Assembly (NCBI RefSeq): GCF_042660085.1
Contig: NZ_JBHSTI010000008.1
Span: 2,025,604 to 2,057,603 of the forward strand
DNA from: Longivirga aurantiaca
GTDB taxonomy: Bacteria > Actinomycetota > Actinomycetes > S36-B12 > CAIYMF01
DNA length: 32,000 bases
Direction: 5' to 3'
Shown here: in pieces, positions 8,753 through 30,093 of the stretch
Layout: every line of letters begins with the position of its first letter
How positions within the stretch are numbered: the first letter of the stretch is position 1
The notes under the pieces: model-generated
The model's input: the letters and a program-made list of their open reading frames with translations, nothing else
Told to the model about the DNA's origin: nothing
Databases searched by the model: none
Translations under genes and position numbers: made by a program

Positions 8753-8807
8753 CGGTCTCCTCGATGTTCTGGTGTCAGTGGTGCGGTCGCGCTGAAGCGG
8801 TGCGGTC

Positions 8808-9623: not shown

Positions 9624-9761
9624 GCCCGGAGCCTACGAGGCGCCGGAGCCTCGTGACGCGACCCACGTGCCTCCCAGGATCCGGCGTGGGAATGCGGACG
9701 CCGGGTGCTCGCGTTCTGGCAGGTGCGGCACCACCGCCGACACGGACCGAGGAGCAGTGCA

Positions 9762-10139
9762 GTGGCATCGATCGAGCTGACGGGTGAGGTCTTCGACGAC
9801 ACCGTCACGGGCAACGACATCGTGTTCGTCGACTTCTGGGCCGAGTGGTGCGGCCCGTGCCGCAACTTCGCCCCGGTCTTCGAGAAGGCCTCCGAGGCCC
9901 ACCCCGACATCGTGTTCGGCAAGGTCGACACCGAGGCCGAGCAGGCGCTCGCAGGCGCCGCCGGCATCTCCTCGATCCCCACGCTCATGGCCTTCCGCGA
10001 GGGCGTGATGCTCTACTCGCAGCCCGGCGCCCTGCGCGACGAGCAGCTCGAGCAGCTGATCAGCGCCGTCAAGAACGTGGACATGACCGAGGTGCACGCG
10101 CAGATCGCAGCGCAGAAGGCCGCCGCCACCGAGGCCTGA
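9762..10139 (+). CDS. Thioredoxin
   Basis: FWAEWCGPCR active site. GTG 9762 is preceded by GGAG at 7 nt. The track's upstream extension lacks coding character. Confidence 0.85.
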   Translation: MASIELTGEVFDDTVTGNDIVFVDFWAEWCGPCRNFAPVFEKASEAHPDIVFGKVDTEAEQALAGAAGISSIPTLMAFREGVMLYSQPGALRDEQLEQLISAVKNVDMTEVHAQIAAQKAAATEA

Positions 10140-10149
10140 GCAGCACGAC

Positions 10150-10187
10150 GAAGGCCCCGGACGTCCTCGCGGACGTCCGGGGCCTTC
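10150..10187. terminator. Bidirectional 17-bp stem hairpin (GAAGGCCCCGGACGTCC / GGACGTCCGGGGCCTTC)
   Basis: Perfect inverted repeat with a 4-nt loop, between convergent thioredoxin and helicase genes. Confidence 0.8.
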
Positions 10188-10199
10188 GTGCTGATCAGG

Positions 10200-11768: not shown

Positions 11769-12113
11769 GGGACCTTCCGGATCGTGGTGGTCACCCGCAA
11801 GACAGCGCGCAGCACGCTCGGGAGGAGCGAGGGCGCAAAGGGTTGCGTCGTCGGTGACCGTGGTGCGTTCCCGTGCGGGTGCACCGCAACCGGTCACTGG
11901 GCCGGAGGCTCGGGGCGCTGCGCTGTTGGAGCGCGTCCCCGTCGTGAGAAGGAATTCGCCGCGGGGTCAGTGCCACCCGGAGCTCGGCGAGATGTGACCA
12001 GGGTACCGGAGTTCCGAGGCGACCCCGACCACCGACGCGCGGCGAGGGTGACGTGATCGTCATGACCGCCCCATGACGGCACGGAGGGTTCATGATGTCC
12101 GCGGGGGACGAGG

Positions 12114-12965
12114 ATGGGTGTGCCGATGAGGCCCAACCGGCCGACGCGGGCCGCCCTGCGGCTCGCCGCGGGCTACTTCGCGGTGTCCGTGGCGTGGATC
12201 CTGCTCTCCGACCGCTTCGCGCGCAGGCTCGCGTTCGGCAACGAGGACGCCGAGCGCTACCTGCAGTCGCTCAAGGGCCTCGGCTTCGTCGCGATCACGT
12301 CGATCGGGCTGTTCCTCGTCGCGCTCCGCTACCTGCGCCGGGTCGAGGACTCGACCGATCGCCTGCGATCGGCGTACGACGAGACCCTCGCCGGCTGGGC
12401 GTCCGCGCTCGACATCCGCGACCGCTCGACGGCGCAGCACACCGAGCGCGTCACGCGCCGCACGGTGGCGCTGGCACGGCAGTTCGGGTTCGAGGGCAGG
12501 GCGCTCGACGACGTGCGTCGAGGAGCGACGCTGCACGACATCGGGAAGATGGGCGTGCCCGACGACGTCCTCGGCAAGAAGGGCCCGCTCACCGACGACG
12601 AGTGGGTGCAGATGCGACGGCATCCCGAGCTCGCCGTCCAGATGCTCCAGGGCATCGAGTACCTCCGCCCTGCGCTGACGATCCCCCTGTGCCATCACGA
12701 GAAGTGGGACGGCAGCGGATACCCGGCGGGCCTCGTGCGCGAGCAGATCCCGCTCGAGGCGCGGCTGTTCGCCGTGGTCGACGTGTACGACGCCATCACC
12801 TCGGTGCGGCCGTACCGCCAGCCGATGCAGGCCGACGAGGCGCGGGCCACCATCGAGGCCGGCTCGGGCACCCACTTCGATCCGGACGTGGTCGTGGCCT
12901 TGCTCGCACTCGTCGACGCCGAGAACCGCGCGGAGGCAGGGCGAGGGCCCGCCACCCCCCAGTAG
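12114..12965 (+). CDS. Membrane-anchored HD-GYP domain protein (putative cyclic-di-GMP phosphodiesterase)
   Basis: Two N-terminal hydrophobic helices, then the HD domain (HTERV...LHDIGK...) and HHEKWDGSGYP. Confidence 0.85.
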   Translation: MGVPMRPNRPTRAALRLAAGYFAVSVAWILLSDRFARRLAFGNEDAERYLQSLKGLGFVAITSIGLFLVALRYLRRVEDSTDRLRSAYDETLAGWASALDIRDRSTAQHTERVTRRTVALARQFGFEGRALDDVRRGATLHDIGKMGVPDDVLGKKGPLTDDEWVQMRRHPELAVQMLQGIEYLRPALTIPLCHHEKWDGSGYPAGLVREQIPLEARLFAVVDVYDAITSVRPYRQPMQADEARATIEAGSGTHFDPDVVVALLALVDAENRAEAGRGPATPQ

Positions 12966-13268
12966 GTGACGGGCCCTCGAGCGGGTGACGAGCACCGCTC
13001 CGAGGAGCAGTCCGGCTCGCAGGTCACCCGAGCCTTGACCCGGCCTGCGATCGGCCGGGCAGAAGAACCATCTCCCGGCGATGTGAACAGTCCGTTTCGT
13101 CCCTGATGCGTCGAGGTCAACCTTTTCCGCCCCTGCGCGAAGGAGGGCGGACGAACCACGACGAGGTGGGCGCACAGGTCCCTGCTGCGCATCGCAGGCT
13201 CGTCCAGCCGAGCCAGCCCTGCGCTCAGATGCGCACCGGGGGCCCACAGCCCGTCTGCGCCAGACGTG

Positions 13269-13299
13269 CGTGGCCCGGACCCTGCGGGCCCGGGCCACG
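13269..13299 (-). terminator. 10-bp GC stem hairpin directly downstream of tRNA-Val
   Basis: CGTGGCCCGG / CCGGGCCACG with an 11-nt loop, 8 nt after the tRNA 3' end on the minus strand. Confidence 0.5.
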
Positions 13300-13306
13300 A
13301 TCGACG

Positions 13307-13380
13307 TGGGCGCAAAGGGACTCGAACCCCTGACCCCCTCCTTGTAAGGGAGGTGCTCTAACCAGCTGAGCTATGCGCCC
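13307..13380 (-). tRNA. tRNA-Val (anticodon UAC), no encoded CCA
   Basis: The minus strand GGGCGCATAGCTCAGCTGGTTAGAGCACCTCCCTTACAAGGAGGGGGTCAGGGGTTCGAGTCCCTTTGCGCCCA folds as a cloverleaf: 7-bp acceptor, GCTC/GAGC D stem, CCTCC/GGAGG anticodon stem with loop CTTACAA, and a GTTCGAGTC T loop. Confidence 0.95.
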
Positions 13381-13564
13381 GGATGCCGGCGACGTGCGCC
13401 GATCCGACGGGCGAGGGTACCGAAACGGGCGGTCGGCCACGAAACCTGCGCACCTGGTCCGGACGTGGGACAACCGCGTCGGGGGGTTCTCGGGCCACCT
13501 CCGACGCGGCTGCCGGGACGATCCTGCGACCGATCGGGCCGACCCGCATCTCGAGCCCTCAGGC

Positions 13565-13653
13565 CTTGCCTCGCCGATGGGGGAGACGGACTTTCGTGCG
13601 GTTTCGGGCTGTTGGCCATACCGTGCTGGCTGCGCTGGGCGCGCGCGGTCCTG
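13565..13653 (+). repeat. 89-bp inverted-repeat element, left copy
   Basis: Matches the reverse complement of 16505-16593 at 87/89 positions by hand alignment. Confidence 0.9.
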
Positions 13654-13834
13654 CACTCGGCATCACGCTCGCGCGCCTCACCGCGTTCGAGACCGGTGCC
13701 GCGCCCCCGGCTCACGGAGATCATCAAGCTCGCCGCGAGCGGGCTGTGGTGTCCAACAAGCGGATCGGCGATTCCGGCACCGGGCAACGGTCCAGGGCCT
13801 AACCTCCCCACGGGGGCTCGTCCGGGGAGGGACC

Positions 13835-16366
13835 ATGCGCTGGACCACTGTGGTGGTGCGGGGGGCTGTCGCGGCGGTGGTTCTGGCCGCGGCCTGGCAG
13901 CCAGTCGCCGCACAGGCCGCGACGTTCACCATCAGTTGCCTGAGCAACCCGGTGCTGAGGAACATCGCGCTCATCGACGCGTTGGAGAAGGCCAACGACG
14001 AGGTGTCCTACCCCGGTGCGGACACTGTCGTGCTGCCCGCCGGCTGCCACTACCTGTTCGACCAGGATTACGGCGACTCCGGCGGCATCCTGCCGCCGAT
14101 CACCGCGGCAGTGACCATCGACGGGAACGGGTCCACGATCGAGAGGCAGGATCCGGACACCGGCACCGGTGATGGGGGCCGGTTCCTCACGATCAAGTCG
14201 ACCGGCGACCTGGTGGTCGGCGATCTGACGCTGCTCAACGGGGCAGGTAGCGACGGCGGGTTCATCGGCAACAGCGGACAGCTGATCGCCAGCGACCTTG
14301 TCCTTGAGGACTCGGCGTACGGGAACAACGACTCGGCGCTGCACAACTGGGGCACCGCCTACGTGCAGCGAACCACGTTCACCAACACCGACTTGTTCGG
14401 GATCGCCGCCCTCGGAGGCGGCGTCTACAACGAGGGTGGGGCGCACCTGACCGTCGTGGACTCCTTGTTCCAGTTCAACACCGCGGACGCCCCGACCGGC
14501 GTGCCGCAAGTGGGCGGGGCGCTGTTCAACGAGCCGCTCGGCTACGTGGAGATCTACGGCACGACGTTCGACCGCAACTACGCCGGAGGTACCGGCGGTG
14601 CGATCTACAACGCCGGGGACCTGCGCATCCACGGGAGCACGTTCACCGGGAACGGTTCCAACTTCGGCGCCGCGATCGACAACTCCGCGGATCTGACCGT
14701 CGATACCAGCTACTTCGGGCAGAACGCTGCAGGCATCCAGGGCGGTGCCATCAACAGCACCGGGCTGGGCACGCTGATGAACGTCACCAACAGCACCTTC
14801 TACCGGAACAGCGCGAACAGCGGGAACGGCAAGGGCGGCGCGATCGCGAACGGGTTCTCCTTCGTTGGCGAGGCGCTCACCTTCGACGGGAACAAGGGCG
14901 TCGGTGCGTCGGTGTGGACAGGGGAGAACGCCGTCTCGAGGCTGGAGTCCTCCATCTTGGGCGGGACCGTCACGCAGTGCGCCGGTGACGGCACGACCAA
15001 CGACTTCGGGGGGAACCTGGTCCAGAGCAGCGCCTACGGCTGCCCGGACACGTTCCTGGTCGGCGACCCTGTGCTGAGCTCGCCGGCGGCGCATGGCAGC
15101 ACCGCGCCGCTGACCGTGGCGCTGGGTGCCGGCAGCGCCGCCGTGGACCGCATCTCTAGCGGCTGCACGAGCACCGACCAGCGGGGCAAGCCACGCCCAG
15201 CCGACGCGTGCGACATCGGCGCCTACGAGAACCAGGCTCCGTCCGCGCCGGGCACGCCGCTCGTCACGCCGTCCACCAACCCGACCCGGACCGGCGCGTT
15301 CCAGCTGTCCTGGTCGGCCGCCAGCGACCCGGACGGCACGGCTCCGTGCTACAGCGTGCAGCGCAAGGACACCGACGACTCCGCCTTCACGCAGATCGCC
15401 TCGACCTGCGCGCTGTCGACCGGGTTCAGCGCCATCACCGCGCAAGCTGAGGGCCGGGTGCAGTACCGGATCAGCGCCACCGACGGCCTGACCACCGCGA
15501 CGGGGTCCACCTCCAGCGTCCTCGTCATCGACCGCACCGCGCCGTCCGACCCGACACTGACGCCCGACAGGGTTGCCGAGTACTCGCCGGCAGCCGGTGA
15601 CGCGTGGTGGGCTGACACGCTGACCGTGACCGCGGCAGGCTCGTCCGACCCGGCCCTGGCCGACGGCAGCGCCGGCACCGGCATCGCCGGTTACACCGAC
15701 CCCCAGACGCTCACCGCGACCGGCGCCACCGTGGTGTCCGGCACGGCCACCGACGGCGCCGGCAACACCAGCACCAGCCAGGCCGCGTTCCGCGTCGACG
15801 CGTCTGCGCCGGTTGTCGCCTACGGCGCGTGCCCCGCGACCCGGCTGAAGGGCCAGGCTCTGACCCTGGCGTGGTCCGCAACCGACGCCGGCGCGGGGCT
15901 CGCCACGTCGAGCACCGGCACGCAGGTCGTGGACGTCGATGTCGTCGGTGAGAAGACCTACCAGGCCAGCGCCACCGACCTGGTAGGGCACACAACCGTC
16001 GCCACCTGCACCGTCCGCGTCGTCTACGACTACAAGGGCCCGTTCTCCCCGCTGTCGGCCACCGGGTACGCCACGGTCACGGCCGGACGAGTCGTCCCGG
16101 TGCAGTTCAGCCTCGCCGGCAACCAGGGCCTCGGCGTGCTCACCGGCGGCAACGCGCAGTCCGCGCCCGTCACGTGCGGCACGACTCCAGCTCTGACCAG
16201 CGGCACGGCAACGTCTCCCACCAAGGCCGGGCTCACGTACGACACCAAGACGGGGCTGTACACGTACAGCTGGAAGACCGCCAGCGCCTGGGCCGGGAGC
16301 TGCCGCGTGCTGATCCTGCCGCTCAACGACGGCACGATGCACCGCTCCTACGTCCAGTTCAAGTGA
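13835..16366 (+). CDS. Large secreted right-handed beta-helix protein (PMP/'choice-of-anchor Q'-like repeats, Ig/FN3-like domains, C-terminal PxKF-like domain)
   Basis: ATG 13835 after GGGGAGG. Signal peptide ...AAWQPVAAQA/A. Repeated GGAIxN / FxxN beta-helix motifs ending TDQRGKPRP..CDIGAYE. DRTAP/DASAP Ig-like junctions. C-terminus AGRVVPVQFSL..GNQGLGVL...YTYSWKT..W.GSCR. Confidence 0.85.
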   Translation: MRWTTVVVRGAVAAVVLAAAWQPVAAQAATFTISCLSNPVLRNIALIDALEKANDEVSYPGADTVVLPAGCHYLFDQDYGDSGGILPPITAAVTIDGNGSTIERQDPDTGTGDGGRFLTIKSTGDLVVGDLTLLNGAGSDGGFIGNSGQLIASDLVLEDSAYGNNDSALHNWGTAYVQRTTFTNTDLFGIAALGGGVYNEGGAHLTVVDSLFQFNTADAPTGVPQVGGALFNEPLGYVEIYGTTFDRNYAGGTGGAIYNAGDLRIHGSTFTGNGSNFGAAIDNSADLTVDTSYFGQNAAGIQGGAINSTGLGTLMNVTNSTFYRNSANSGNGKGGAIANGFSFVGEALTFDGNKGVGASVWTGENAVSRLESSILGGTVTQCAGDGTTNDFGGNLVQSSAYGCPDTFLVGDPVLSSPAAHGSTAPLTVALGAGSAAVDRISSGCTSTDQRGKPRPADACDIGAYENQAPSAPGTPLVTPSTNPTRTGAFQLSWSAASDPDGTAPCYSVQRKDTDDSAFTQIASTCALSTGFSAITAQAEGRVQYRISATDGLTTATGSTSSVLVIDRTAPSDPTLTPDRVAEYSPAAGDAWWADTLTVTAAGSSDPALADGSAGTGIAGYTDPQTLTATGATVVSGTATDGAGNTSTSQAAFRVDASAPVVAYGACPATRLKGQALTLAWSATDAGAGLATSSTGTQVVDVDVVGEKTYQASATDLVGHTTVATCTVRVVYDYKGPFSPLSATGYATVTAGRVVPVQFSLAGNQGLGVLTGGNAQSAPVTCGTTPALTSGTATSPTKAGLTYDTKTGLYTYSWKTASAWAGSCRVLILPLNDGTMHRSYVQFK

Positions 16367-16504
16367 GGCGGACGGCGGGGGCAAGCGGGGACCCCTGCTG
16401 ACAGGCCGGCTGCGGCGGCTGGCTCAGCCGCGCGCTCGAGTATCGCGCGGCACCGGAATAGGCACACCCCCCTCCGCGTCGGCTGGGCGTCCGGAGGCCA
16501 GCGT

Positions 16505-16593
16505 CAGGACCGCGCGCGCCCAGCGCAGCCAGCACGGTATGGCCGACAGCCCGAAACCGCATGAAAGTCCGTCTCCCCCATCGGCGAGGCAAG
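16505..16593 (-). repeat. 89-bp inverted-repeat element, right copy
   Basis: Reverse complement of the left copy with 2 substitutions. It ends 2 nt from the stop codon of the 16596-16928 gene. Confidence 0.9.
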
Positions 16594-16595
16594 CC

Positions 16596-16928
16596 TCAGG
16601 CGGTGGGGTCCGCCCGCAGCACGCGGTCGAGGGCGGCTGCGACGTCGGCCGCGAGGGCCTCCCGGGGCGACCCCTCCCGCTCGACGTTCGCGCCGGGAGC
16701 GGCCACCGAGGCTCCGACGTGACCGCAGCCCCGGCACACGACCTCGCCGAGCCGCTTCACGAGCACGGTCGACCCGCACTGCGCGCACCGGTCGAGCCCG
16801 TCGGTCCAGCCGTCGGTCTGGCAGTCGGGGCAGACGAGCACCTGCTCGCCCACCACGACGGCACGACGCCAGGTCGACGGACCGGAGTCCGGGTCGACCT
16901 GGCGTCGACCGCACACGACGCACCCCAT
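16596..16928 (-). CDS. Small four-CxxC (double zinc-ribbon) protein
   Basis: ATG 16928. CVVCG...CPDC...CAQCG...CRGCG. High GC3. Lies 37 nt downstream of ahpE on the same strand. Confidence 0.7.
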   Translation of the reverse strand: MGCVVCGRRQVDPDSGPSTWRRAVVVGEQVLVCPDCQTDGWTDGLDRCAQCGSTVLVKRLGEVVCRGCGHVGASVAAPGANVEREGSPREALAADVAAALDRVLRADPTA

Positions 16929-16965
16929 GGCACCGATGGTGCCAGCAGGACGCCGGGATGCGGGA

Positions 16966-17430
16966 TCAGGCAGTGATCGCGAGCAGGGCGTCGCGGTAGT
17001 CCTGGGTGCGCCGGGCGTCGCCCGGGCCGTTCACGACCGACCAGCGCACGACGCCGTCCTTGTCGATGATGAACGTCGCACGGAGCGGGAAGCCGCCGGG
17101 CTCGAAGAAGACGCCGTACTCCTGGGTCACGGCGCCGTGCGGCCAGAAGTCGCTGAGGAGCTGGAACTCGTAGCCCTCCTGCTCGGCGAACACCTTGAGC
17201 GTGGCCGTCGTGTCGCACGAGATGCCGAGGACGACGGTGTCGTCGTTCTCGAACACCGACCGCTCGTCGCGGATCTCGCACAGCTCGCCGGTGCAGGTGG
17301 CCGTGAACGCCTTCGGGTAGAAGACGACCACGACCGTCTTCTCGCCGCGGAACGACGAGAGACGCACCGGGGTGCCGAACTGGTTCCTGAGCTCGAAGTC
17401 GGGGGCTTCCTGGCCCACCTCGACCGGCAT
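16966..17430 (-). CDS. ahpE: Peroxiredoxin, AhpE type
   Basis: ATG 17430 after AGGAAGG. APDFELR, VVVFYPKAFTATCTGEL and LLSDFWPHGAVTQEYGVF match the mycobacterial AhpE pattern. 154 aa. Confidence 0.9.
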   Translation of the reverse strand: MPVEVGQEAPDFELRNQFGTPVRLSSFRGEKTVVVVFYPKAFTATCTGELCEIRDERSVFENDDTVVLGISCDTTATLKVFAEQEGYEFQLLSDFWPHGAVTQEYGVFFEPGGFPLRATFIIDKDGVVRWSVVNGPGDARRTQDYRDALLAITA

Positions 17431-17489
17431 GCGCGTGCCCTTCCTGGCCCTGGGCCGCGGAAGCGTCCCCACCACGGCAGGATTCGATC

Positions 17490-18419
17490 GTGGCACAGCT
17501 TCCCTCCGTCCTCCTCCCGAGCCCTGGCGACCGCGGGCTCGCGACGACCGACCGCGACCGGCTCGCGGCGTCGGTCGACCGGGCGTGGGCGCTGTTCGCC
17601 GAGATGGTCGAGCCGCTCGACCTCGCAGCCGTCACGCGCGCCAAGGGTCTGACGGTGCGCGAGGTGGTGACGCCGCTGGGTGCCTGGCCGGACAACCGGC
17701 CGCTGGCGCAGCTGCTCGAGGAGGCGCGCAGCGGAGTGGTCGGCGACCACGACCAGGGAGCCCTCGTGGACGCCGTGCGCGCCGCGCACGCCGACGAGCC
17801 GCGCGACGCCGTGCTGGCCGCGGTCCGGGCGCAGGGCGGCCAGATGGCGGCGTGGCTTGCGTCGGAGGAGTCCGACGTCGACGGTCTGCTGCCCGTGGCG
17901 TCGATGCTCGGCACGATCCCGCTGCTCACGTTCCTGCACGCCTCGACGTACCCGCTGGCGACCTCGGCGCTGGACCTCGAGCAGGCCGGCGCCGTCGTGC
18001 CGGACGAGCTGCTCGCGCTCGGGCTCGTCGGGGTGCTCGACACCATCGGCGCCCTGGCCGCCCGGCAGGGGCTCACCGCATCGCTCGTCGCCGTGACGCC
18101 GACGCTGTGCGCCGGGGTCGCGTCGGTGCCCGGGGCATGGCGCACGGCCGACCTCGACGGGCTCGACGCCGCCGACCTCGGGCCGCGTGTGGAGGGCACC
18201 GTGCGGATGCTTCTCGACGTGACGGCGAGCCGGGCCGACGTGCCGCGGGCCATGGCAGCGAAGACCCTGGCGCTGCACGACGTCCCGGGGCTGCTCGCGC
18301 TGGCGCCGCTCGTCGATCAGGTGCCGGGGATCCCAGGCGGCGCGGCGCTGTCCGCGAGCATGCGCGCGGTGTCCGCCGTGGGGTCGCTGCTGCGCCGCCT
18401 GCCGTTCACGCGAGGCTGA
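17490..18419 (+). CDS. Conserved hypothetical protein (Ala/Leu-rich, possibly DinB/MDMPI-like N-terminus)
   Basis: 309-aa ORF with high GC3, a GTG start, divergent from ahpE. I recognised no diagnostic motif. Confidence 0.6.
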   Translation: MAQLPSVLLPSPGDRGLATTDRDRLAASVDRAWALFAEMVEPLDLAAVTRAKGLTVREVVTPLGAWPDNRPLAQLLEEARSGVVGDHDQGALVDAVRAAHADEPRDAVLAAVRAQGGQMAAWLASEESDVDGLLPVASMLGTIPLLTFLHASTYPLATSALDLEQAGAVVPDELLALGLVGVLDTIGALAARQGLTASLVAVTPTLCAGVASVPGAWRTADLDGLDAADLGPRVEGTVRMLLDVTASRADVPRAMAAKTLALHDVPGLLALAPLVDQVPGIPGGAALSASMRAVSAVGSLLRRLPFTRG

Positions 18420-18858: not shown

Positions 18859-19162
18859 GACGTCCTCCGCTTCCTCACGCCGACGGCACTGCGCCACCGG
18901 GTGGGGCTAGTCCACCGGACCGCGAGCCGCGCACGCAAGCACCACGGCCTCGTTGCTGCGCGCGTCGCCCCAGGTGGGAACCCTCCGAACGCACCCTGAC
19001 CCGGTTCGCGGCCGCCACGATGCGGTGACCCGCGAGTAACCGGCAGGATGGTCCCTGCGTCTCCCCGCGACCCGGGGACCCCGGCGCGGACCGGCACACG
19101 CACCAGCCTGGCAACCCGAGGGCAACGGCGCCCCCGCACGCACTTCCTTGCGACCCGAGGAG

Positions 19163-21910
<2,748 letters not shown>

Positions 21911-21925
21911 CCAATCCCGCGATTT

Positions 21926-21965
21926 GGTAGTGGAAAGTCGCGCTCTGCTGCGACTTTCCACTACC
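21926..21965. terminator. Bidirectional 16-bp stem hairpin (GGTAGTGGAAAGTCGC / GCGACTTTCCACTACC), unusually AT-rich
   Basis: Perfect inverted repeat between convergent aceE and pirin genes. Confidence 0.75.
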
Positions 21966-21972
21966 GAATCGG

Positions 21973-22752
21973 TCAGCCCAGGGTGGCATGCATCTCCCAG
22001 ACCAGGACCTCGGCGTCGCCGCCGACGGCGGTAACCCTCTGGCCCTCGGACACCGTGATGCGGGCGGCGTCGCCAGTCTCCAGAGTCCCTGCGCCCTCGA
22101 GCTCGACCGCGCCGCGCGCGACGAACAGGTGGACGAACGGCGCCGCGGGAAGCTCGACGCTGCCGCCGTCGGCAAGCCGCGCGGCGAGCAGGCCGGCGTA
22201 CTGGTTCTGGATGCGGATCGCGCGGTCGTCGGCGTGCTTGGCCATGCCGGACGCAACGGTGACGAGCCCGCCCGCCTGCAGCTCGGCGGTGATGTCGAGC
22301 TGCTCGTAGCCGGGCGCGAGGCGCTGCGTGTCGGGCACGACCCACATCTGGATGAAGTGCACCGGGTCGGTGTGGGTGTCGCCGCCGGTGAGGCGCCAGG
22401 AGTCGTTCTTCTCCGAGTGCAGGATCCCGGTGCCGGCGCTCATGCGCTGGGCGAGCCCCGGCTGGATGACGCCGCTGTGCCCCTCGGAGTCCTGGTGGAC
22501 GAGGCCGCCGTCGAGCACCCAGGTGACGATCTCCATGTCGCGGTGCGGGTGCGTCTCGAAGCCGGTGCCGGGCGCGACGACGTCGTCGTTGGAGACCAGC
22601 AGCAGGCCGAAGTGGGTGTTGGCCGGGTCGCGGTGGTGCCCGAACGAGAACGAGTGCGAGCTGTCGAGCCAGCCGAGGTCGGTCGCGAACCGGTCGGCGG
22701 AGCGGCGCAGGTCGACCGAGGGCGTGAGCGAGGCGGTCGATGAGGTGGTCAC
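21973..22752 (-). CDS. Pirin family protein
   Basis: HSFSFGHH...GFETHPHRDMEIVTWVLDG.L.HQDS.GH...GTGILHSE motifs. GTG 22752 after GGAGGA (alternative GTG at 22788). Confidence 0.85.
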   Translation of the reverse strand: MTTSSTASLTPSVDLRRSADRFATDLGWLDSSHSFSFGHHRDPANTHFGLLLVSNDDVVAPGTGFETHPHRDMEIVTWVLDGGLVHQDSEGHSGVIQPGLAQRMSAGTGILHSEKNDSWRLTGGDTHTDPVHFIQMWVVPDTQRLAPGYEQLDITAELQAGGLVTVASGMAKHADDRAIRIQNQYAGLLAARLADGGSVELPAAPFVHLFVARGAVELEGAGTLETGDAARITVSEGQRVTAVGGDAEVLVWEMHATLG

Positions 22753-22855
22753 GGGTCCTCCAGCGGTTGTGGTTGATCGTTCAACCACATGACCTGTTGT
22801 CGTATTCCGACAGTCGCGGGGCCTGGCAGGCCTCGCTGAACCCTAGGCTTCGCCC

Positions 22856-24031
22856 GTGCCCACCGCGAGCGAGCGCCACCGCGCCACCACCGTGCGCCGC
22901 CTCGAGCGCGCGACCGGCAGCCTCGCCACCGCCGCCTCGGCCCGGATGGAGTCCGAGCTCCCCTGGTACGCCGCGATGTCCGCCGAGGACCGCTCCTGGG
23001 TCAACCTCGTGGCGCAGGCCGGCATCGCGGCCTTCGTCCGCTGGTTCCGCGACCCGGAGGGCGCCTCGGCCATCACCGCCGACGTCTTCGGCACCGCGCC
23101 GCAGGAGCTCGTGCGCGCGGTCTCCCTGCAGCAGACGGTCGACCTCGTCCGCACGACGATCGCCGTGGTCGAGGAGCACGTCCAGGAGCTGGCCAGCCCC
23201 GAGGACCTCCCCTGGGTGCGCGAGGGCATGCTCCTCTACTCCCGCGAGATCGCCTTCGCCGCGGCGCAGGTCTACGCGCGTGCGGCCGAGGCCCGCGGCG
23301 CGTGGGACGCCCGGCTCGAGTCGCTCGTGCTCGACGCCCTGCTGCGTGACGACCTCGCCGACGACGTCGTCTCCCGCGGCGCCGCGCTCGGGTGGGGCGC
23401 GGTCACGGGAGTGTGCGTGGTCACAGGCCATGCGCCGGACGGCGACCCCGAGACCGTCGCCGAGGGCGTGAAGCGGGCGGCGCGCCACCACCGGTACGAC
23501 GCGCTCACCGGCGTCCAGTCCCAGCGCCTCGTCGTGGTGCTCGGCAACGTCACCGACGCCGCGACCGCGGCCCGGGCCGTCCTCGCCCACTTCGCACCCG
23601 GCCCGGTCGTGGTCGGGCCCGTCGTCCCCCGCCTCGCCGACGCCGGCCGCAGCGCCAAGGAGTCGCTCACCGCCCTCCGGGCGGCGGTGGCCTGGCCGGA
23701 CGCGCCGAGGCCCGTGCTCGCCGAGGACCTGCTGCCCGAGCGCGCCCTCGACGGCGACGACGACGCCGTCGCGCGGCTCGTGACCGAGGTGTACGACCGG
23801 CTGCTGGCGGAGGACCCGGCGCTGGTCGAGACGCTGTCGGCGTACCTCGAGCGGACGGGCAGCCTCGAGGGCACCGCGCGCGAGCTGTTCGTCCACCCCA
23901 ACACCGTGCGCTACCGTCTGCGGCGCGTCGCCGACGTCACCGGCCTCACGCCCACGATGCCCCGCGACGCCTGGTCGCTGCGGATGGCGCTGGCCCTCGG
24001 GCGCCTCGGCGAGGACCGAACCTCCACCTGA
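22856..24031 (+). CDS. PucR-family transcriptional regulator, MabR(Rv2242)/FasR(SCO2386)-like by position
   Basis: C-terminal PucR HTH (GSLEGTARELFVHPNTVRYRLRRVADVTG). Located between aceE and fabD, like the known FAS-II regulators. Confidence 0.85.
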   Translation: MPTASERHRATTVRRLERATGSLATAASARMESELPWYAAMSAEDRSWVNLVAQAGIAAFVRWFRDPEGASAITADVFGTAPQELVRAVSLQQTVDLVRTTIAVVEEHVQELASPEDLPWVREGMLLYSREIAFAAAQVYARAAEARGAWDARLESLVLDALLRDDLADDVVSRGAALGWGAVTGVCVVTGHAPDGDPETVAEGVKRAARHHRYDALTGVQSQRLVVVLGNVTDAATAARAVLAHFAPGPVVVGPVVPRLADAGRSAKESLTALRAAVAWPDAPRPVLAEDLLPERALDGDDDAVARLVTEVYDRLLAEDPALVETLSAYLERTGSLEGTARELFVHPNTVRYRLRRVADVTGLTPTMPRDAWSLRMALALGRLGEDRTST

Positions 24032-24035
24032 TACG

Positions 24036-24052
24036 TTGTAGGAAACCTACAA
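24036..24052. promoter_or_regulatory. AT-rich perfect palindrome TTGTAGG-AAA-CCTACAA upstream of fabD (candidate operator)
   Basis: Read directly. 11/17 positions are A/T in a GC-rich genome. It lies 5 nt after the regulator's stop and 68 nt before the fabD GTG. Confidence 0.45.
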
Positions 24053-24119
24053 AGTTCGCGGGTCGGGTTTGGCCGGGCCGTGATCTCCGCGTGACCTTCT
24101 CTCCCGGAAGGCTGAACCC

Positions 24120-25307
24120 GTGCTCGTCGTCGTCGCGCCCGGACAGGGCTCTCAGACCCCCGGTTTCCTCACGCCCTGGCTGGAGGTGCCCGGCTTCGCG
24201 GACCGCCTCCGCTGGCTCTCCACCGTCGCCGGGATCGACCTCGTGCAGCACGGCACCGAGAGCGACGCCGACACCATCCGCGACACCGCCGTGGCGCAGC
24301 CGCTGCTGGTGGGGGCGGGCCTGGTCACGCTGGTGAGCCTGTTCCCGCACCCGGCCGAGGCGTACGGCAAGGTCGGCGCGGGGGCCGGGCACAGCGTCGG
24401 CGAGATCACCGCCGCCGTCGGCGCCGGTGTCATGACGGCCGAGCAGGCCATGGTGTTCGTGCGCGAGCGCGGCCGCGCGATGGCCGCCGCCGCAGCCGTC
24501 ACCCCCACCGGGATGACGGCGGTGCTCGGCGGCGACCGCGACGAGGTCGTCGCCGCCGCCGAGAAGCACGGACTCACCGCCGCCAACGAGAACGGCGCCG
24601 GGCAGATCGTGGTGGCCGGCACCCTCGAGCAGCTCGAGGCGTTCGCCGCCGAGCCGCCGGCCAGGGCCCGGCTGCGCCCCCTGCAGGTGGCAGGCGCGTT
24701 CCACACCCGCCACATGGGCCCCGCCGTCGCCGAGCTCGCGGCCCTGGCCCGCAGCATCTACGTGCACGACACGCGCCTGCGCCTCATCAGCAACGCCGAC
24801 GGCCAGGTCGTGCACAGCGGCCGCGACGTCCTTACGCGTCTCGTCACCCAGGTGAGCAACCCCGTCCGCTGGGACCTCTGCATGCAGACGATGGGCGAGA
24901 TCGGCGTCACGGCGCTGCTCGAGCTCACGCCGGGCGGCACGCTCACCGGCCTCGCCAAGCGCGGGCTCCCCGGCGTCGAGGCCCTGGCCCTCAACACCCC
25001 CGACGACCTGCCGGCCGCCTGGGACCTCATCGAGCGTCACGCCACGGTCGCACCGACCTCGCAGTCGCCCACCTGGCGCCTGCTCGTCGCCCCTGCCAAG
25101 GGCACCTTCCGCCTCGGCGTCACCTCCGAGAGCGGCGACAGCCTCGTGGCCGGCGCCGCGATCGGATCGATCGTCAACCTGCGCGACGAGCAGCCCGTGC
25201 TCGCACCGCACGGCGGCACCGTCGTCGAGTGGCTCGTCGAGGACGGCGACCCCGTGAGCCCCGGCCAGCCGCTCGTGCGCCTGCACCCCGAGGCCGGTCG
25301 CGCGTGA
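24120..25307 (+). CDS. fabD: Malonyl-CoA:ACP transacylase fused to a C-terminal BCCP-like (biotinyl/lipoyl-fold) domain lacking the modifiable Lys
   Basis: FabD motifs (APGQGSQ, GHSVGE, the GAFHT region) in aa 1-~305. aa 318-395 align to the BCCP pattern (APAKGTF...G..V..G..IG.I...(no MKM)...APHGGTVVEWLVEDGDPVSPGQPLVRL). One continuous high-GC3 frame. Confidence 0.85.
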   Translation: MLVVVAPGQGSQTPGFLTPWLEVPGFADRLRWLSTVAGIDLVQHGTESDADTIRDTAVAQPLLVGAGLVTLVSLFPHPAEAYGKVGAGAGHSVGEITAAVGAGVMTAEQAMVFVRERGRAMAAAAAVTPTGMTAVLGGDRDEVVAAAEKHGLTAANENGAGQIVVAGTLEQLEAFAAEPPARARLRPLQVAGAFHTRHMGPAVAELAALARSIYVHDTRLRLISNADGQVVHSGRDVLTRLVTQVSNPVRWDLCMQTMGEIGVTALLELTPGGTLTGLAKRGLPGVEALALNTPDDLPAAWDLIERHATVAPTSQSPTWRLLVAPAKGTFRLGVTSESGDSLVAGAAIGSIVNLRDEQPVLAPHGGTVVEWLVEDGDPVSPGQPLVRLHPEAGRA

Positions 25308-26308
25308 CCGCCCGCATCGCGACGACGCCCGTCCGCGCCGGCAGTCGCATCGTCTCCACCGGCTCCTACCGGCCGGCGCGCGTGATCGACAACGCCGAGG
25401 TCTGCACGTGGATCGAGTCCTCGGACGAGTGGATCCGCGAGCGGTCGGGCATCGTCGAGCGGCGCTGGGCGGCACCGGACGAGAGCGTGACCGACATGGG
25501 CCTCGCCGCGGCCGAGAAGGCGCTGGCGGCGTCCGGGCTGTCAGCCACCGATCTGTCGATGGTGCTCGTCGCCACCGTGTCGCACCCGTACCAGACGCCC
25601 TCGGCCGCAGCCGAGATCGCCGACCGCATCGGCGCCCCGCAGGCCGCGGCGCTCGACGTCGCCGCCGCGTGCGCCGGCTTCTGCTACGCCCTCGGCCTCG
25701 CCGACAACCTCATCCGGTCCGGCCAGTCCGAGCACATCCTCGTGATCGGCGTCGAGAAGCTCTCGGACTTCGTGCGCCAGGACGACCGCGGCTCGTCGTT
25801 CATCTTCGCCGACGGCGCGGGCGCGGTCGTGGTGAGCCCGAGCGACCACGCCGGCATCGGACCGACCGTCTGGGGCGCCGACGGCGCGCAGAAGGACGCC
25901 ATCACGATGACGCAGTCGTGGACCGAGTTCCGCGACGACCCGAGCCACGGCTTCCCGGCGCTCGTCATGCAGGGCCAGCAGGTGTTCCGCTGGGCCGTGG
26001 GCGAGATGGCCAAGGTCTCGCAGGAGGCCCTCGCTGCCGCCGGCGTCACCGTGGACGACCTCGCCGCGTTCGTGCCGCACCAGGCGAACAACCGGATCAC
26101 CGACGCCATCGTGCGCCAGCTCGCCCTGCCCGACCACGTGGTCGTCGCCCGCGACATCATCACCACGGGCAACACCTCGGCCGCCTCGGTGCCGCTCGCG
26201 CTCGACCGCATGCTCGAGAGCGGCGAGGTGGGCCACGGCGGCCTCGCCCTGCTCGTCGGGTTCGGCGCGGGCCTCGCCTACGCCGCCCAGGTGGTGGAGA
26301 TCCCCTAG
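25304..26308 (+). CDS. fabH: 3-oxoacyl-ACP synthase III
   Basis: The GTG start overlaps the fabD stop (GTGA). SDEWIRERSGI, AACAGF (active Cys), HQAN and GNTSAAS motifs. Confidence 0.9.
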   Translation: MTARIATTPVRAGSRIVSTGSYRPARVIDNAEVCTWIESSDEWIRERSGIVERRWAAPDESVTDMGLAAAEKALAASGLSATDLSMVLVATVSHPYQTPSAAAEIADRIGAPQAAALDVAAACAGFCYALGLADNLIRSGQSEHILVIGVEKLSDFVRQDDRGSSFIFADGAGAVVVSPSDHAGIGPTVWGADGAQKDAITMTQSWTEFRDDPSHGFPALVMQGQQVFRWAVGEMAKVSQEALAAAGVTVDDLAAFVPHQANNRITDAIVRQLALPDHVVVARDIITTGNTSAASVPLALDRMLESGEVGHGGLALLVGFGAGLAYAAQVVEIP

Positions 26309-26409
26309 TCCCCCGCTGCCCTCGGCACCGGGAGCACGACCCGCACGACCGCTCGTCGCACCACCAGGAAGCACCACACCGTCCAGCACCGATCTGCAGG
26401 AGAAGCAAC

Positions 26410-26646
26410 GTGTCTCAGACCCTCGAGGGCCTCGCCGCCATCGTCAACGAGGTCGCCGGTACCCCCATCGCCGACATCACCCCCGAGAAGTCCTTCGTGG
26501 ACGACCTGGACATCGACTCGCTGTCGATGGTCGAGGTCGTCATGGCCTGCGAGGACAAGTTCGGCGTCAGCATCCCCGACGGCGAGGTCAAGAACCTCAA
26601 GACCGTCGGCGACGCCGTCGCCTTCATCGACGCCAACGCCGGCTGA
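26410..26646 (+). CDS. acpP: Acyl carrier protein
   Basis: GTG 26410 after AGGAGA. DLDIDSLSMVE phosphopantetheine-attachment motif. 78 aa. Confidence 0.9.
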   Translation: MSQTLEGLAAIVNEVAGTPIADITPEKSFVDDLDIDSLSMVEVVMACEDKFGVSIPDGEVKNLKTVGDAVAFIDANAG

Positions 26647-26742
26647 CCAAGCCGCACCGCCGTCGTCGCGGCGGCGCCCCCACCGGGGCGCCGCCCGCAC
26701 GACCTCTCGTCCCTCCCCGCTACGAGCCCAGGAGCTTCGTCC

Positions 26743-27984
26743 ATGACCACGGAACCCCGCCGCGTCGTCGTCACCGGTCTCGGTGCCACGACTCCCGTCG
26801 GCGGCGACGTCCCCTCCACCTGGGAGGGCCTGCTCGCCGGCCGCTCGGGCGTCCGCACCCTCGAGGACGACCGGTTCGCCGACCTCCCGGTGCGCTTCGC
26901 GGGGCAGGTCGCCGTCGATCCCAGCGAGGTCATGGAGCGCCCCGAGGCGCGCAAGCTCGACCGTTCGCAGCAGCTCGCCCTCATCGCCTCGCGCGAGGCC
27001 TGGAAGGACGCCGGCTCCCCGGAGATCGACCCGCTGCGCCTCGGCGTCGCGGTCGCCACGGGCATCGGCGGCATCGTGAGCCTGCTCGACAACTACGACA
27101 TCCTCAACACCCGCGGCTGGACGCGCGTCTCGCCGATGTCGGTGCCGCAGCTGATGCCGAACGGCTCGGCCGCCTGGATCGGCCTCGACCTCGGCGCGCA
27201 GGCCGGCATCCACACCCCGGTCTCCGCCTGCGCGTCCGGCGCCGAGGCTGTCGGCACGGGGCTGGAGATGATCCGCAGCGGCCGTGCCGACATCGTGATG
27301 ACGGGCGGCACCGAGGCGTGCATCCACCCGATCACGATCGCCGCGTTCGCCGCGATGCGTGCGCTGTCGACCCGCAACGACGACCCCGCCGGTGCGAGCC
27401 GGCCGTACGACCTCAACCGCGACGGCTTCGTCATGGGCGAGGGCGCCGGCATGCTCGTGCTCGAGGACTACGACCACGCGGTCGCGCGCGGCGCCACCAT
27501 CTACGCCGAGGTCGCGGGCGTGGGCCTGTCGGCCGACGGCCACCACATCGCGCAGCCCGAGCCCGAGGGCCGCGGGGCAACCCGCGCGATCCGCTCGGCG
27601 CTCGAGGCGTCCGGGCTCGCGGCGTCGGACATCATCCACGTGAACGCGCACGCCACCTCGACCCCGCAGGGCGACGGCGCCGAGGCGCTCGCCATCCGGG
27701 CTGCGCTCGGCAGCGCGGCCGACGGCATCGCCGTCAGCGGCACCAAGTCGATGACGGGCCACCTGCTCGGCGGCGCCGGCGCGGTCGAGTCGGTCGCCGC
27801 GATCCTCGCGCTGCGCAACCGCGTCGCCCCGGTCACCGCCAACCTCGAGGACCGCGACGACTCGATCGACCTCGACGTCGTCTTCGGCAGCCCGCGCGCC
27901 CTGCGCGCAGGGGACGCCGCGGTGCTCAACAACTCGTTCGGGTTCGGCGGCCACAACGTCGCCCTCATCTTCCGGAGCATCTGA
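26743..27984 (+). CDS. fabF: 3-oxoacyl-ACP synthase II (KAS II)
   Basis: VVVTGLG, the SACASG active-site Cys, NAHATSTP, GHLLGGAG and NSFGFGGHN motifs. Confidence 0.9.
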   Translation: MTTEPRRVVVTGLGATTPVGGDVPSTWEGLLAGRSGVRTLEDDRFADLPVRFAGQVAVDPSEVMERPEARKLDRSQQLALIASREAWKDAGSPEIDPLRLGVAVATGIGGIVSLLDNYDILNTRGWTRVSPMSVPQLMPNGSAAWIGLDLGAQAGIHTPVSACASGAEAVGTGLEMIRSGRADIVMTGGTEACIHPITIAAFAAMRALSTRNDDPAGASRPYDLNRDGFVMGEGAGMLVLEDYDHAVARGATIYAEVAGVGLSADGHHIAQPEPEGRGATRAIRSALEASGLAASDIIHVNAHATSTPQGDGAEALAIRAALGSAADGIAVSGTKSMTGHLLGGAGAVESVAAILALRNRVAPVTANLEDRDDSIDLDVVFGSPRALRAGDAAVLNNSFGFGGHNVALIFRSI

Positions 27985-29411
27985 TGACCGCAGTGGCCGG
28001 CTCCGACATCCAGGTCACCGACCTCGACCCGCGGCACCCCCTGGTGCGCCTCGATGCGTTCCTCGACGACGGCACGATGGAGCTCATCTCCGCCGTCGAC
28101 GACTGCGGCGTCATCGCCGCCACCGGCGTCGCGCACGGCACCCCTGTCGTCGTCTTCTGCACAGACCCCACGGTGCAGGGCGGCGCGATGGGCATCGGCG
28201 GCTGCAAGGTCATCGTCGAGGCGTACGAGCGCGCGAGCGCGGACGGCGTCCCGATCGTGGGCCTGTGGCACTCCGGCGGCGCACGCCTGCGCGAGGGCGT
28301 CGAGAGCCTGCAGGCCGTCGGCCTCGTCTTCGCGATCATGACGCGGGTCTCCGGCCGCATCCCGCAGATCTCGGTCGTGCTCGGCCCGGCTGCCGGCGGT
28401 GCGGCGTACGGCCCGGCGCTGACCGACGTCGTCGTGCTCGGCCCCGAGGGCCGCGTGTTCGTCACCGGCCCCGACGTCGTCCGCTCGGTCACCGGCGAGG
28501 ACGTCGACATGCTGCGCCTCGGCGGCCCCGAGCCGCACGGCCGCCGGTCCGGTGTCGTGCACGTGGTGTCGGCGACCGAGCGCCAGGCGCTCGACGACGG
28601 CGCCCGCCTCGCCTCGCTGCTCGGCACCCACGGCACGCTCAACGTCACCGCCGTGGCCGACGTCGACCTCGCCGCGCTCATGCCCGAGAACATCAAGCGC
28701 GCGTACGACGTCCACCCCGTCGTCGATGCTCTGCTCGACGAGGGAAGCTCGCTCGAGCTCCACCCCCGCTGGGCGCCGAACATCGTGACGACGCTCGGCC
28801 GCATGGGCGGTCGCGCCGTCGGCGTCATCGCCAACAACCCGCTGCGCCTCGGCGGCTGCCTCGACGCCACCAGCGCCGAGAAGGCCGCGCGGTTCGTGCG
28901 CATGTGCGACGCGTTCGGCCTGCCGCTCGTCGTCGTCGTCGACGTGCCCGGCTACCTCCCCGGCGTCGGGCAGGAGTGGGACGGCGTCGTGCGCCGCGGC
29001 GCGAAGCTGCTGCACGCGTTCGCGGAGGCCGAGGTGCCGCGCGTGACCGTCGTGACGCGCAAGGCCTTCGGCGGCGCCTACATCGCGATGAACGCCCGTG
29101 CCCTCGGTGCCACCAAGGTGTTCGCGTGGCCCGACGCGCAGGTGGCCGTCATGGGCGCCGTCGCAGCCGTGCGGATCCTGCACCGCCGCAAGCTGGCCGA
29201 GGTGCCCGCCGACGCCCGCACCCAGGTCGAGAACGAGCTGGCCGAGGAGCACACCCGCATCGCGGGCGGCGTCGAGAAGGCCGTGGCGATCGGCGTCGTC
29301 GACGAGGTCGTCACGCCGCAGACCACGCGCAGCGCCCTCGCCCGCGCGCTGGCCGACGCGCTCGCCGCCGATCCGGACATCCGCGGGCACCACGGCAACA
29401 TCCCGCTGTAG
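27984..29411 (+). CDS. accD6: Acyl-CoA carboxylase carboxyltransferase beta subunit (AccD6-like, 475 aa)
   Basis: The ATG overlaps the fabF stop (TGATG). Carboxyltransferase-domain motifs (GGAMG..G, SGGARL.EG, GPAAGGAAY, PGYLPG..QE..G, AFGGAY). Size and position after the KAS gene match Mtb AccD6. Confidence 0.85.
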   Translation: MTAVAGSDIQVTDLDPRHPLVRLDAFLDDGTMELISAVDDCGVIAATGVAHGTPVVVFCTDPTVQGGAMGIGGCKVIVEAYERASADGVPIVGLWHSGGARLREGVESLQAVGLVFAIMTRVSGRIPQISVVLGPAAGGAAYGPALTDVVVLGPEGRVFVTGPDVVRSVTGEDVDMLRLGGPEPHGRRSGVVHVVSATERQALDDGARLASLLGTHGTLNVTAVADVDLAALMPENIKRAYDVHPVVDALLDEGSSLELHPRWAPNIVTTLGRMGGRAVGVIANNPLRLGGCLDATSAEKAARFVRMCDAFGLPLVVVVDVPGYLPGVGQEWDGVVRRGAKLLHAFAEAEVPRVTVVTRKAFGGAYIAMNARALGATKVFAWPDAQVAVMGAVAAVRILHRRKLAEVPADARTQVENELAEEHTRIAGGVEKAVAIGVVDEVVTPQTTRSALARALADALAADPDIRGHHGNIPL

Positions 29412-29427
29412 CCCCGCAGCCCCGGCT

Positions 29428-29469
29428 CCGGGGGCGCGACGCTTCGGTGCTGGACCGTCGCGCCCCCGG
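29428..29469 (+). terminator. 13-bp GC stem hairpin (CCGGGGGCGCGAC / GTCGCGCCCCCGG) after accD6
   Basis: Read directly. 16-nt loop. Confidence 0.6.
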
Positions 29470-29480
29470 CCAGCACGGCA

Positions 29481-29513
29481 GAGACCCCCCGACCGCGAGG
29501 TCCGGGGGGTCTC
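29481..29513. terminator. Hairpin GAGACCCCCCGACC / GGTCCGGGGGGTCTC between convergent genes
   Basis: Read directly. One bulged base. Confidence 0.6.
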
Positions 29514-29550
29514 CGCTTCTTCCCTCAGGGAGGAGGGATGTCGGGGGCGG

Positions 29551-30093
29551 TCACACCACCTGGTGCAGCCAGCGGACGGGCGTGCCCTCCCCGGCGGTGC
29601 GGAAGGGCTCGAGCTCGGTGTCCCACGGACCGCCGAGCAGGATCTCGATCTCGTCCTGCACCGGCTCGCCGATCTCGAGGGCGCGCGCGATGGCGGCGCG
29701 GACGCGATTCTCGCTCAGCATCACGTCGCCCGTCGGGCCGATGGCCGAGCGGTGGACGCCGAGCACAGGGGTTCCGGAGTACCGCTCGCCCTCGGAGGTC
29801 GCGGTCGGCTCCTCGGTGACCTCGAAGCGCAGCTTGCGCCAGCCCTGCAGCACCGATGCGATACGGGCGGCCGTGCCCACGGGACCGGTCCAGCTGATGT
29901 CGGCGCGGACGGTGCCCGCCTGCACGGGCTGCGCCGACCAGTCGAGGTCGACCCGGGATCCCAGGATGTCCGCGAGGGCCCACTCGACATGGGTCGCCAC
30001 GGCGCGGGGGCAGGAATGCACGAAGACGACGCCACGGGTGACCCGTGCGCCGCGGGGCTCGCGGGAGCCCGAGGTGCCACTGCGTTCGGTCAT
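29551..30093 (-). CDS. DUF3145 family protein
   Basis: TRGVVFVHSCP.AVATHVEWALA..LG..V.LDW..QP...G..RA..SW.G..GTAARIAS.L.GW..LRFEVTEEP...EGERYS...LEPFR.AGEG.PVRWLHQVV matches my recollection of this actinobacterial family. ATG 30093. Confidence 0.8.
   Translation of the reverse strand: MTERSGTSGSREPRGARVTRGVVFVHSCPRAVATHVEWALADILGSRVDLDWSAQPVQAGTVRADISWTGPVGTAARIASVLQGWRKLRFEVTEEPTATSEGERYSGTPVLGVHRSAIGPTGDVMLSENRVRAAIARALEIGEPVQDEIEILLGGPWDTELEPFRTAGEGTPVRWLHQVV

Follow-up and report, generated by a model that had tools for sequence, protein, structure and literature searches.

A FabD acyltransferase fused to a non-biotinylatable BCCP-type domain in the fatty-acid synthesis operon of Longivirga aurantiaca and other Actinomycetota

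A stretch of 32,000 nucleotides from Longivirga aurantiaca (contig NZ_JBHSTI010000008.1, positions 2,025,604–2,057,603; hereafter the window) carries an operon for type II fatty-acid synthesis (FAS-II) in which the fabD gene is joined in frame to a segment coding for a dead biotin carboxyl carrier protein (BCCP) domain, that is, a predicted biotinyl-type fold without the biotin-accepting lysine. On the forward strand the gene order is regulator, fabD fusion, fabH, acpP, fabF, and carboxyltransferase. The fused gene is one uninterrupted open reading frame (ORF) of 395 aa, running on the forward strand from a GTG at 24120 to a TGA ending at 25307, and its product divides into a FabD acyltransferase domain (aa 1–307; 24120–25040), a short linker (aa 308–317; 25041–25070), and the BCCP-type module (aa 318–391; 25071–25292). 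The codon for Arg355 (CGC; 25182–25184) falls at the tip of a hairpin in the module, at the position of the biotinyl-lysine.

The acyltransferase part is well delimited. Pfam Acyl_transf_1 (PF00698) covers aa 5–283 of the fusion (62 bits; cut-off, 32.7), aa 1–308 match the Streptomyces coelicolor malonyl-CoA:acyl carrier protein transacylase (MCAT; 1NM2) at 349 bits, and the FabD part matches Mycobacterium tuberculosis FabD (2QC3) at 259 bits. Catalytic motifs were located at PGQGSQ (aa 7–12), GHSVGE (aa 90–95), VRERG (R115/R117), and GAFHT (aa 192–196); GQGSQ, GHSVGE, VRERG, and GAFHT are invariant in a 37-sequence alignment of the family and presumably correspond to the oxyanion loop, nucleophilic serine, malonate-binding arginine, and catalytic histidine of E. 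coli FabD. Judged by these motifs, residues 1–307 are a catalytically intact FabD. The protein thus shares the acyltransferase domain and its catalytic motifs with canonical FabD/MCAT enzymes (1NM2, 2QC3, and E. coli 1MLA), as well as its place as the first gene of a fab operon behind a MabR/FasR-type regulator, but the solved enzymes end at 303–317 aa, can be aligned only to residues 1–308 of the fusion, and in the case of 1NM2 and 2QC3 both stop where the linker starts, whereas here a linker and a 75-aa domain are added.

The same protein, at 100% identity, is held by NCBI for L. aurantiaca under the name ‘acyltransferase domain-containing protein’. The NCBIfam fabD equivalog TIGR00128 scores 173.3 bits on it, below the cut-off of 260.9 bits, and the mdcH model TIGR03131 scores equally on the FabD part (173.7 bits), also far below its cut-off, which accounts for the generic name in place of FabD. 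The actinobacterial FabDs are divergent from the TIGR00128 model, and the operon context of fabH, acpP, and fabF points to FabD. In practice the fused FabDs are consequently under-annotated. A malonate decarboxylase (Mdc/Mad) system was also considered and rejected, as there is only weak similarity to MdcH, MdcD, and MdcE, with no mdcA, mdcC, mdcB, or mdcG, and the neighbours are fabH, acpP, and fabF.

The original prediction, drawn from the DNA alone, had proposed that this FabD bears an extra C-terminal domain of BCCP type in which NLRD replaces AMKM; all three elements of that description were borne out, the first by the length of 395 aa set against the solved enzymes and the others by the comparisons that follow. 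Applied to the isolated domain, Pfam Biotin_lipoyl (PF00364) scores 22.6 bits, just over its gathering threshold of 22.1 bits, and within the full protein it scores 19.3 bits; a precomputed PF00364 match is carried by some homologues and is missing from many. Biotin_lipoyl_2 reaches 26.9 bits, under its 29.8 cut-off, and several NCBIfam BCCP models match the extension weakly and sub-threshold. For the isolated domain, AlphaFold gave a model, based on 20 homologues, with a predicted local distance difference test score (pLDDT) of 83.8; the top PDB match of this model in Foldseek is E. coli apo-BCCP87 (1a6x; template modelling [TM] score, 0.70), followed by P. horikoshii BCCP and the BCCP domains of methylcrotonyl-CoA, pyruvate, and propionyl-CoA carboxylases; these BCCP structures superpose at ~2 Å over ~70 residues with 26–30% identity. 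By sequence and by predicted fold, the extension is therefore a BCCP-type biotinyl domain. In the full-length AlphaFold model (predicted TM score, 0.75), pLDDT drops below 50 only at aa 312–317 and in the last four residues, and the linker region (aa 301–316) is the least conserved segment of the protein (mean column conservation, 0.51). On these predictions the domain appears to fold on its own and to be attached by a short (~10-residue), flexible tether.

Over its whole length the family profile can be aligned with the biotinyl 1.3S subunit of transcarboxylase (1dcz), and this puts ‘tlRde’ on ‘aMKMe’, so that Arg355 occupies the position of the biotinyl-lysine. In the window protein the hairpin reads N-L-R-D in place of (A/E)-M-K-M; with arginine instead of the biotin-accepting lysine, the domain would not be biotinylatable and could not carry CO2. 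Compared with genuine biotinyl domains (1a6x, 1dcz, and the C-termini of actinobacterial AccA), the likeness extends to the fold (TM ~0.7), the AP-x-x-G-T ... G-D-x-V-x-x-G-Q-x-L pattern across both halves, and the position of the hairpin, but (A/E)MKM has become x-[LNRST]-R-[DEGA], the E. coli-type thumb is lacking, and the domain sits on a transacylase rather than on a biotin carboxylase or BT domain. A relationship to HlyD/RND membrane-fusion adaptors was considered and rejected: apart from the Biotin_lipoyl_2 score given above, only a sub-threshold half-domain match to HlyD_3 was obtained (20 vs 22.2 bits), and the fusion protein has no coiled coil or further domains and ends at aa 395.

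Using one genome per GTDB species, it was possible to explore how widely this architecture occurs, and the domain is encoded in the genomes of at least 463 species; the best 80 of these loci were examined in detail. The 80 loci belong to the Nanopelagicales, Nocardioides, Kribbella, Marmoricola, Actinopolymorpha, Sporichthyaceae, Jiangellaceae, and Streptosporangiales, and all of them encode the domain as an in-frame fusion with FabD. More distant fused FabDs (48–57% identity) were found in Angustibacter, Nostocoides and Dermatophilaceae, Acidothermus, metagenome-assembled genomes assigned to the ‘Mycobacteriales’ and Frankiales, and some Streptomycetaceae (Streptomyces sp. SCUT-3 and PTM05, and Wenjunlia). 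One remote clade has a shortened first half but retains the arginine (NRSGD, NRAGD, or QRSG). The carriers thus include abundant freshwater Nanopelagicales, whose genomes are streamlined and nonetheless keep the domain, and the soil genera Nocardioides and Kribbella.

Several apparent exceptions to the FabD fusion dissolved on inspection. Stand-alone dead BCCP genes (P0122, P0157, and others) are frameshift artefacts, not products of gene fission: some of the short proteins still carry the C-terminal helix of FabD, and the others derive from a single long-read assembly where further genes are split as well. In two loci from that assembly (L088 and L089; ENA sample ERZ25039488), fabD, fabH, aceE, and the carboxyltransferase gene are each broken into several short ORFs, and frameshift noise of this kind, typical for long-read assemblies, has put spurious ‘stand-alone’ entries for the dead BCCP into protein databases. 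Apparent FabH–dead BCCP fusions (P0255, P0313, P0334, P0335, and P0341) were likewise rejected as frameshifted read-throughs with out-of-frame, Arg/Pro-rich stretches.

Since the window is rich in GC, it could be asked whether the extension is a gene product under selection at all. A decaying, functionless BCCP remnant, or a read-through due to an error in sequencing or to the rarity of stop codons at high GC, would leave a similar ORF; high-GC genomes yield long spurious ORFs, many overlapping ORFs are present in the window, and the domain varies in its first half, which is also shortened in the distant clade. The coding signal points the other way. GC content at third codon positions (GC3) in the domain is 0.94 in the coding frame, compared to 0.78 and 0.55 in the alternative frames, and 0.97 in the acyltransferase domain. 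Measured against ten close relatives, the dead BCCP domain has a ratio of nonsynonymous to synonymous substitution rates (dN/dS) of 0.22 and the acyltransferase domain one of 0.19; by halves, the dead BCCP domain has a dN/dS of 0.46 (first half) and 0.14 (second half). The second half (aa 358–391; APHGGTVVEWLVEDGDPVSPGQPLVRLHP) has a mean pairwise identity of 79%, compared to 71.5% for the catalytic domain, and Arg355 is invariant in all 76 full-length homologues. Together with the confidently predicted fold, the retention of the domain in streamlined Nanopelagicales, and the 80 in-frame loci, which also disposed of the concern in the original prediction that a frameshift or stop might be hidden near the junction, these conservation data effectively refute a relic or an artefact, an explanation now considered very improbable. 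From the sequence comparisons, the dead BCCP domain is an old feature under strong purifying selection in the fasII operon of many Actinomycetota.

Downstream of fabD the operon is compact. The fabH gene (ketoacyl-ACP synthase [KAS] III; 25304–26308), with Pfam ACP_syn_III and ACP_syn_III_C, starts with a GTG that overlaps the fabD stop (GTGA, 25304–25307), and is followed by acpP (26410–26646), whose translation is an acyl carrier protein (ACP) of 78 aa that is conserved in all related loci and matches PP-binding in its counterparts in distant loci. The fabF/KAS II gene (26743–27984; Pfam ketoacyl-synt and Ketoacyl-synt_C) overlaps in turn with the start of the carboxyltransferase gene (TGATG, 27982–27986). 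These two overlaps, fabD with fabH and fabF with the carboxyltransferase gene, imply co-translation, in keeping with the tight coupling that had been read from the sequence at the outset. The last gene (27984–29411, 475 aa; PF01039 Carboxyl_trans, 394 bits) had been called AccD6-type, and this identification stood: residues 12–475 match M. tuberculosis AccD6 (4fb8) at 618 bits, compared to 391 bits for the next best, PccB, making the protein, by sequence similarity, clearly an AccD6 orthologue. In the acetyl-CoA carboxylase that supplies fatty-acid synthase, the carboxyltransferase is AccD6 (PMC4949712).

The arrangement is constant wherever the genes downstream of a fused fabD could be read. 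Of the 80 loci, 66 extend as far as the carboxyltransferase position, and all 66 have the order regulator, fabD fusion, fabH, acpP, fabF, and carboxyltransferase; six of six distant fused-FabD loci share this order, among them those of Streptomyces sp. SCUT-3, Wenjunlia, and Nostocoides. The 8 kb flanking the operon on each side (89 loci plus the window) contained no genuine AMKM biotinyl domain, indicating that the functional carrier has its gene at another locus, presumably as part of an AccA-type alpha subunit. In three of the six distant loci, from the remote clade with the shortened first half of the dead BCCP domain, the carboxyltransferase gene is followed by two overlapping short-chain dehydrogenase genes, probably of fabG and inhA/fabI type (L085, 13031–14540; L086, 12112–13604; L087, 9925–11396), and in the Wenjunlia and Nostocoides loci (L083 and L084) a DUF3145 gene recurs after the carboxyltransferase. 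An alignment of the carboxyltransferases from clades with full-length and with shortened dead BCCP domains had differences at the N-terminus only, none of them tracking the domain.

Upstream, a PucR-family regulator gene (22856–24031, forward strand; Pfam GGDEF_2 and HTH_30) is the positional counterpart of MabR (Rv2242) and FasR, and a PucR-type regulator lies 5' of fabD in nearly all related loci. Between the regulator gene and fabD, 84 nt 5' of the fabD start, the perfect inverted repeat TTGTAGG-AAA-CCTACAA (24036–24052) is the sole TTGT-N9-ACAA site in the window, and 43 of 76 related loci have such a site at −83 to −86. MabR is the PucR-type regulator of the fabD-acpM-kasA-kasB-accD6 operon (PMC11617747), and the repeat agrees in its core with the published MabR operator, TTTTGT-N9-ACAAAA (PMC5541348), so that it probably serves as operator for the adjacent regulator. 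The M. tuberculosis locus aceE-mabR-fabD-acpM-kasA-kasB-accD6 is syntenic with positions 19148–30093 of the window and has the TTGT-N9-ACAA operator type in common with it (PMC11617747, PMC5541348), but possesses two KAS genes, no fabH, and an unfused FabD of 303 aa. The window locus differs in the inserted fabH, in a pirin gene between aceE and the regulator gene, and in the dead BCCP on its FabD.

BCCP domains dock onto the active-site clefts of the biotin carboxylase and carboxyltransferase of biotin-dependent carboxylases. With an AccD6-type carboxyltransferase as the only, and constant, co-encoded partner in the same coupled operon, the reading tentatively preferred here is that the dead BCCP domain may be a docking module, acting as a tether or coupler between FabD and acetyl-CoA carboxylase. 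The domain would place FabD on the carboxylase, most probably at the BCCP site of AccD6 or alternatively at the biotin carboxylase domain of the alpha subunit, so that malonyl-CoA would be made beside the enzyme that transfers it to ACP; occupancy of the BCCP site might also throttle the carboxylase, coupling supply to demand. The presence of the carboxyltransferase as the last operon gene with every readable fused FabD is circumstantial support for tethering. Within the Streptomycetaceae, Streptomyces sp. SCUT-3 and Wenjunlia have both the fusion and the carboxyltransferase, and S. coelicolor has an unfused FabD of 316 aa (1NM2) and a fab operon that is not known to contain a carboxyltransferase gene; fusion and carboxyltransferase thus seem to travel together in this family.

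A number of observations weigh against docking on the carboxylase. The co-occurrence with the carboxyltransferase was scored in a sample of fused forms only. FabD is normally very fast, which makes a kinetic need for channelling uncertain. The side chain of arginine is far too short to reach the position of biotin in the carboxyltransferase, leaving the invariance of Arg355 unexplained by simple biotin mimicry, and the conserved GxVxEWLVEDGDPVxPGQPL is largely a generic signature of barrel-sandwich hybrid domains that need not imply a binding surface. In a mirror-tree comparison of 54 operons, the dead BCCP domain had a partial correlation with the carboxyltransferase of 0.10, no better than for other operon proteins; the maximum for the domain was with the regulator (0.39), and the test is uninformative. 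Finally, M. tuberculosis has accD6 in its fabD operon (PMC11617747) together with an unfused FabD (2QC3), so that the carboxyltransferase does not need the domain, and a dead BCCP occupying a BCCP site would be as apt to inhibit as to channel.

This last point leads to an explanation in which inhibition is the whole function. The dead BCCP would compete with the true, biotinylated BCCP of the alpha subunit for the carboxyltransferase or biotin carboxylase site and act as a negative regulator of malonyl-CoA synthesis, with carboxylase activity scaled inversely to the level or state of FabD and no channelling involved. The BCCP-like structure and the co-occurrence with AccD6 are accommodated as well by such a brake as by docking, and a domain sitting in the BCCP site necessarily excludes the real BCCP. 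The analogy is to the plant BADC proteins, which are non-biotinylated BCCP homologues associated with the plastid acetyl-CoA carboxylase and were first characterised as its negative regulators (PMC12706156). The BADCs are the nearest known concept to the FabD fusion: both are non-catalytic BCCP homologues without the biotinylation motif, and both are associated, in the present case through the operon, with the maker of malonyl-CoA for type II fatty-acid synthesis (PMC12706156). They differ in that BADCs are free-standing, have long disordered regions, and act in the biotin carboxylase subcomplex of a differently built, four-subunit heteromeric enzyme (PMC12706156), whereas the domain described here is covalently fused to FabD in hosts whose carboxylases are of the alpha (biotin carboxylase and BCCP)/beta (carboxyltransferase) type, and has an invariant arginine at the position of the biotinyl-lysine. 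Nothing suggests common descent of the two. As an inhibitor fused to an essential downstream enzyme and co-translated at fixed stoichiometry would also be an odd design for a regulator, a pure brake is regarded as unlikely, though it keeps some weight.

The absence of a carboxyltransferase-specific signal in the mirror-tree and the working of mycobacterial AccD6 without the domain are equally what would be expected if the domain had no link to the carboxylase and served as an adaptor inside FAS-II, mediating FabD oligomerisation or binding to FabH, KAS, reductases, ACP, or the FabD active site; accD6 would then accompany the fusion only as part of an old, commonly inherited gene order. In mycobacteria FabD belongs to the core of FAS-II protein complexes (PMC4949712), barrel-sandwich hybrid domains are general protein–protein modules, and the domain also has weak HlyD/RND-adaptor matches. 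Against an internal adaptor stand the sequence and fold, which are nearest to the BCCP domains of carboxylases and not to lipoyl or adaptor domains, and the neighbouring genes: fabH, acpP, and fabF are present with or without the FabD fusion, whereas the carboxyltransferase appears to track the fusion within the Streptomycetaceae. On balance a role confined to FAS-II is judged improbable.

Returning to docking on acetyl-CoA carboxylase, the tethering and throttling elements may be brought together in a more specific and more doubtful form, in which the arginine-tipped decoy would plug into the BCCP site of AccD6, hand malonyl-CoA to FabD, and set carboxylase activity by FabD occupancy. If this combined version, somewhat unlikely as it stands, were true, acetyl-CoA carboxylase and type II fatty-acid synthase would form one physical assembly in a large part of the Actinomycetota, a bacterial and covalently fused counterpart of the plant BADC system with an independent origin. 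The fused domain would also amount to a second, independent recruitment of non-biotinylated BCCP homologues to fatty-acid synthesis, after the plant BADCs. The way in which bacteria match malonyl-CoA supply to fatty-acid synthesis is only partly understood, and the AccD6/FabD step is a drug-target area in mycobacteria; a decoy carrier domain conserved in so many species offers a testable handle on the formation of a carboxylase–FAS-II complex, and such a docking module could serve the engineering of malonyl-CoA flux in actinomycete polyketide producers.

The fusion had been proposed to be undescribed, a claim that stands in part. In the literature searched for a fusion of FabD with a biotinyl domain no description was found, but automated annotation already labels fragments: pipelines flag the domain on some members, and fragments are named ‘biotin/lipoyl-binding protein’ or ‘biotin attachment protein’. 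As far as is known, the FabD–dead BCCP architecture is visible in databases and seemingly uncharacterised.

Outside the operon, aceE (19148–21910) lies on its 5' side, the pirin gene (21973–22788, reverse strand) separates aceE from the regulator gene, and a DUF3145 gene (29551–30093, reverse strand) is found 3' of the carboxyltransferase gene. Several large ORFs in positions 1–18000 were without a Pfam match in the frame tried, and an RNase II-type gene occupies 3203–4678 (reverse strand). Long antisense or out-of-frame ORFs occur throughout the window (for example, 509 aa opposite fabD; 23946–25475, reverse strand) and are not genes, their abundance being due to a GC content of ~70%. Among the proteins gathered with the dead BCCP domains are two unrelated ones, P0307 (546 aa) and P0339 (655 aa), each with four tandem BCCP-like domains after an N-terminal domain. 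The N-terminal domain of P0307 looks TIR-like by eye and one repeat of this protein retains EAMKM; the two may be signalling or defence proteins composed of repeated biotinyl domains.

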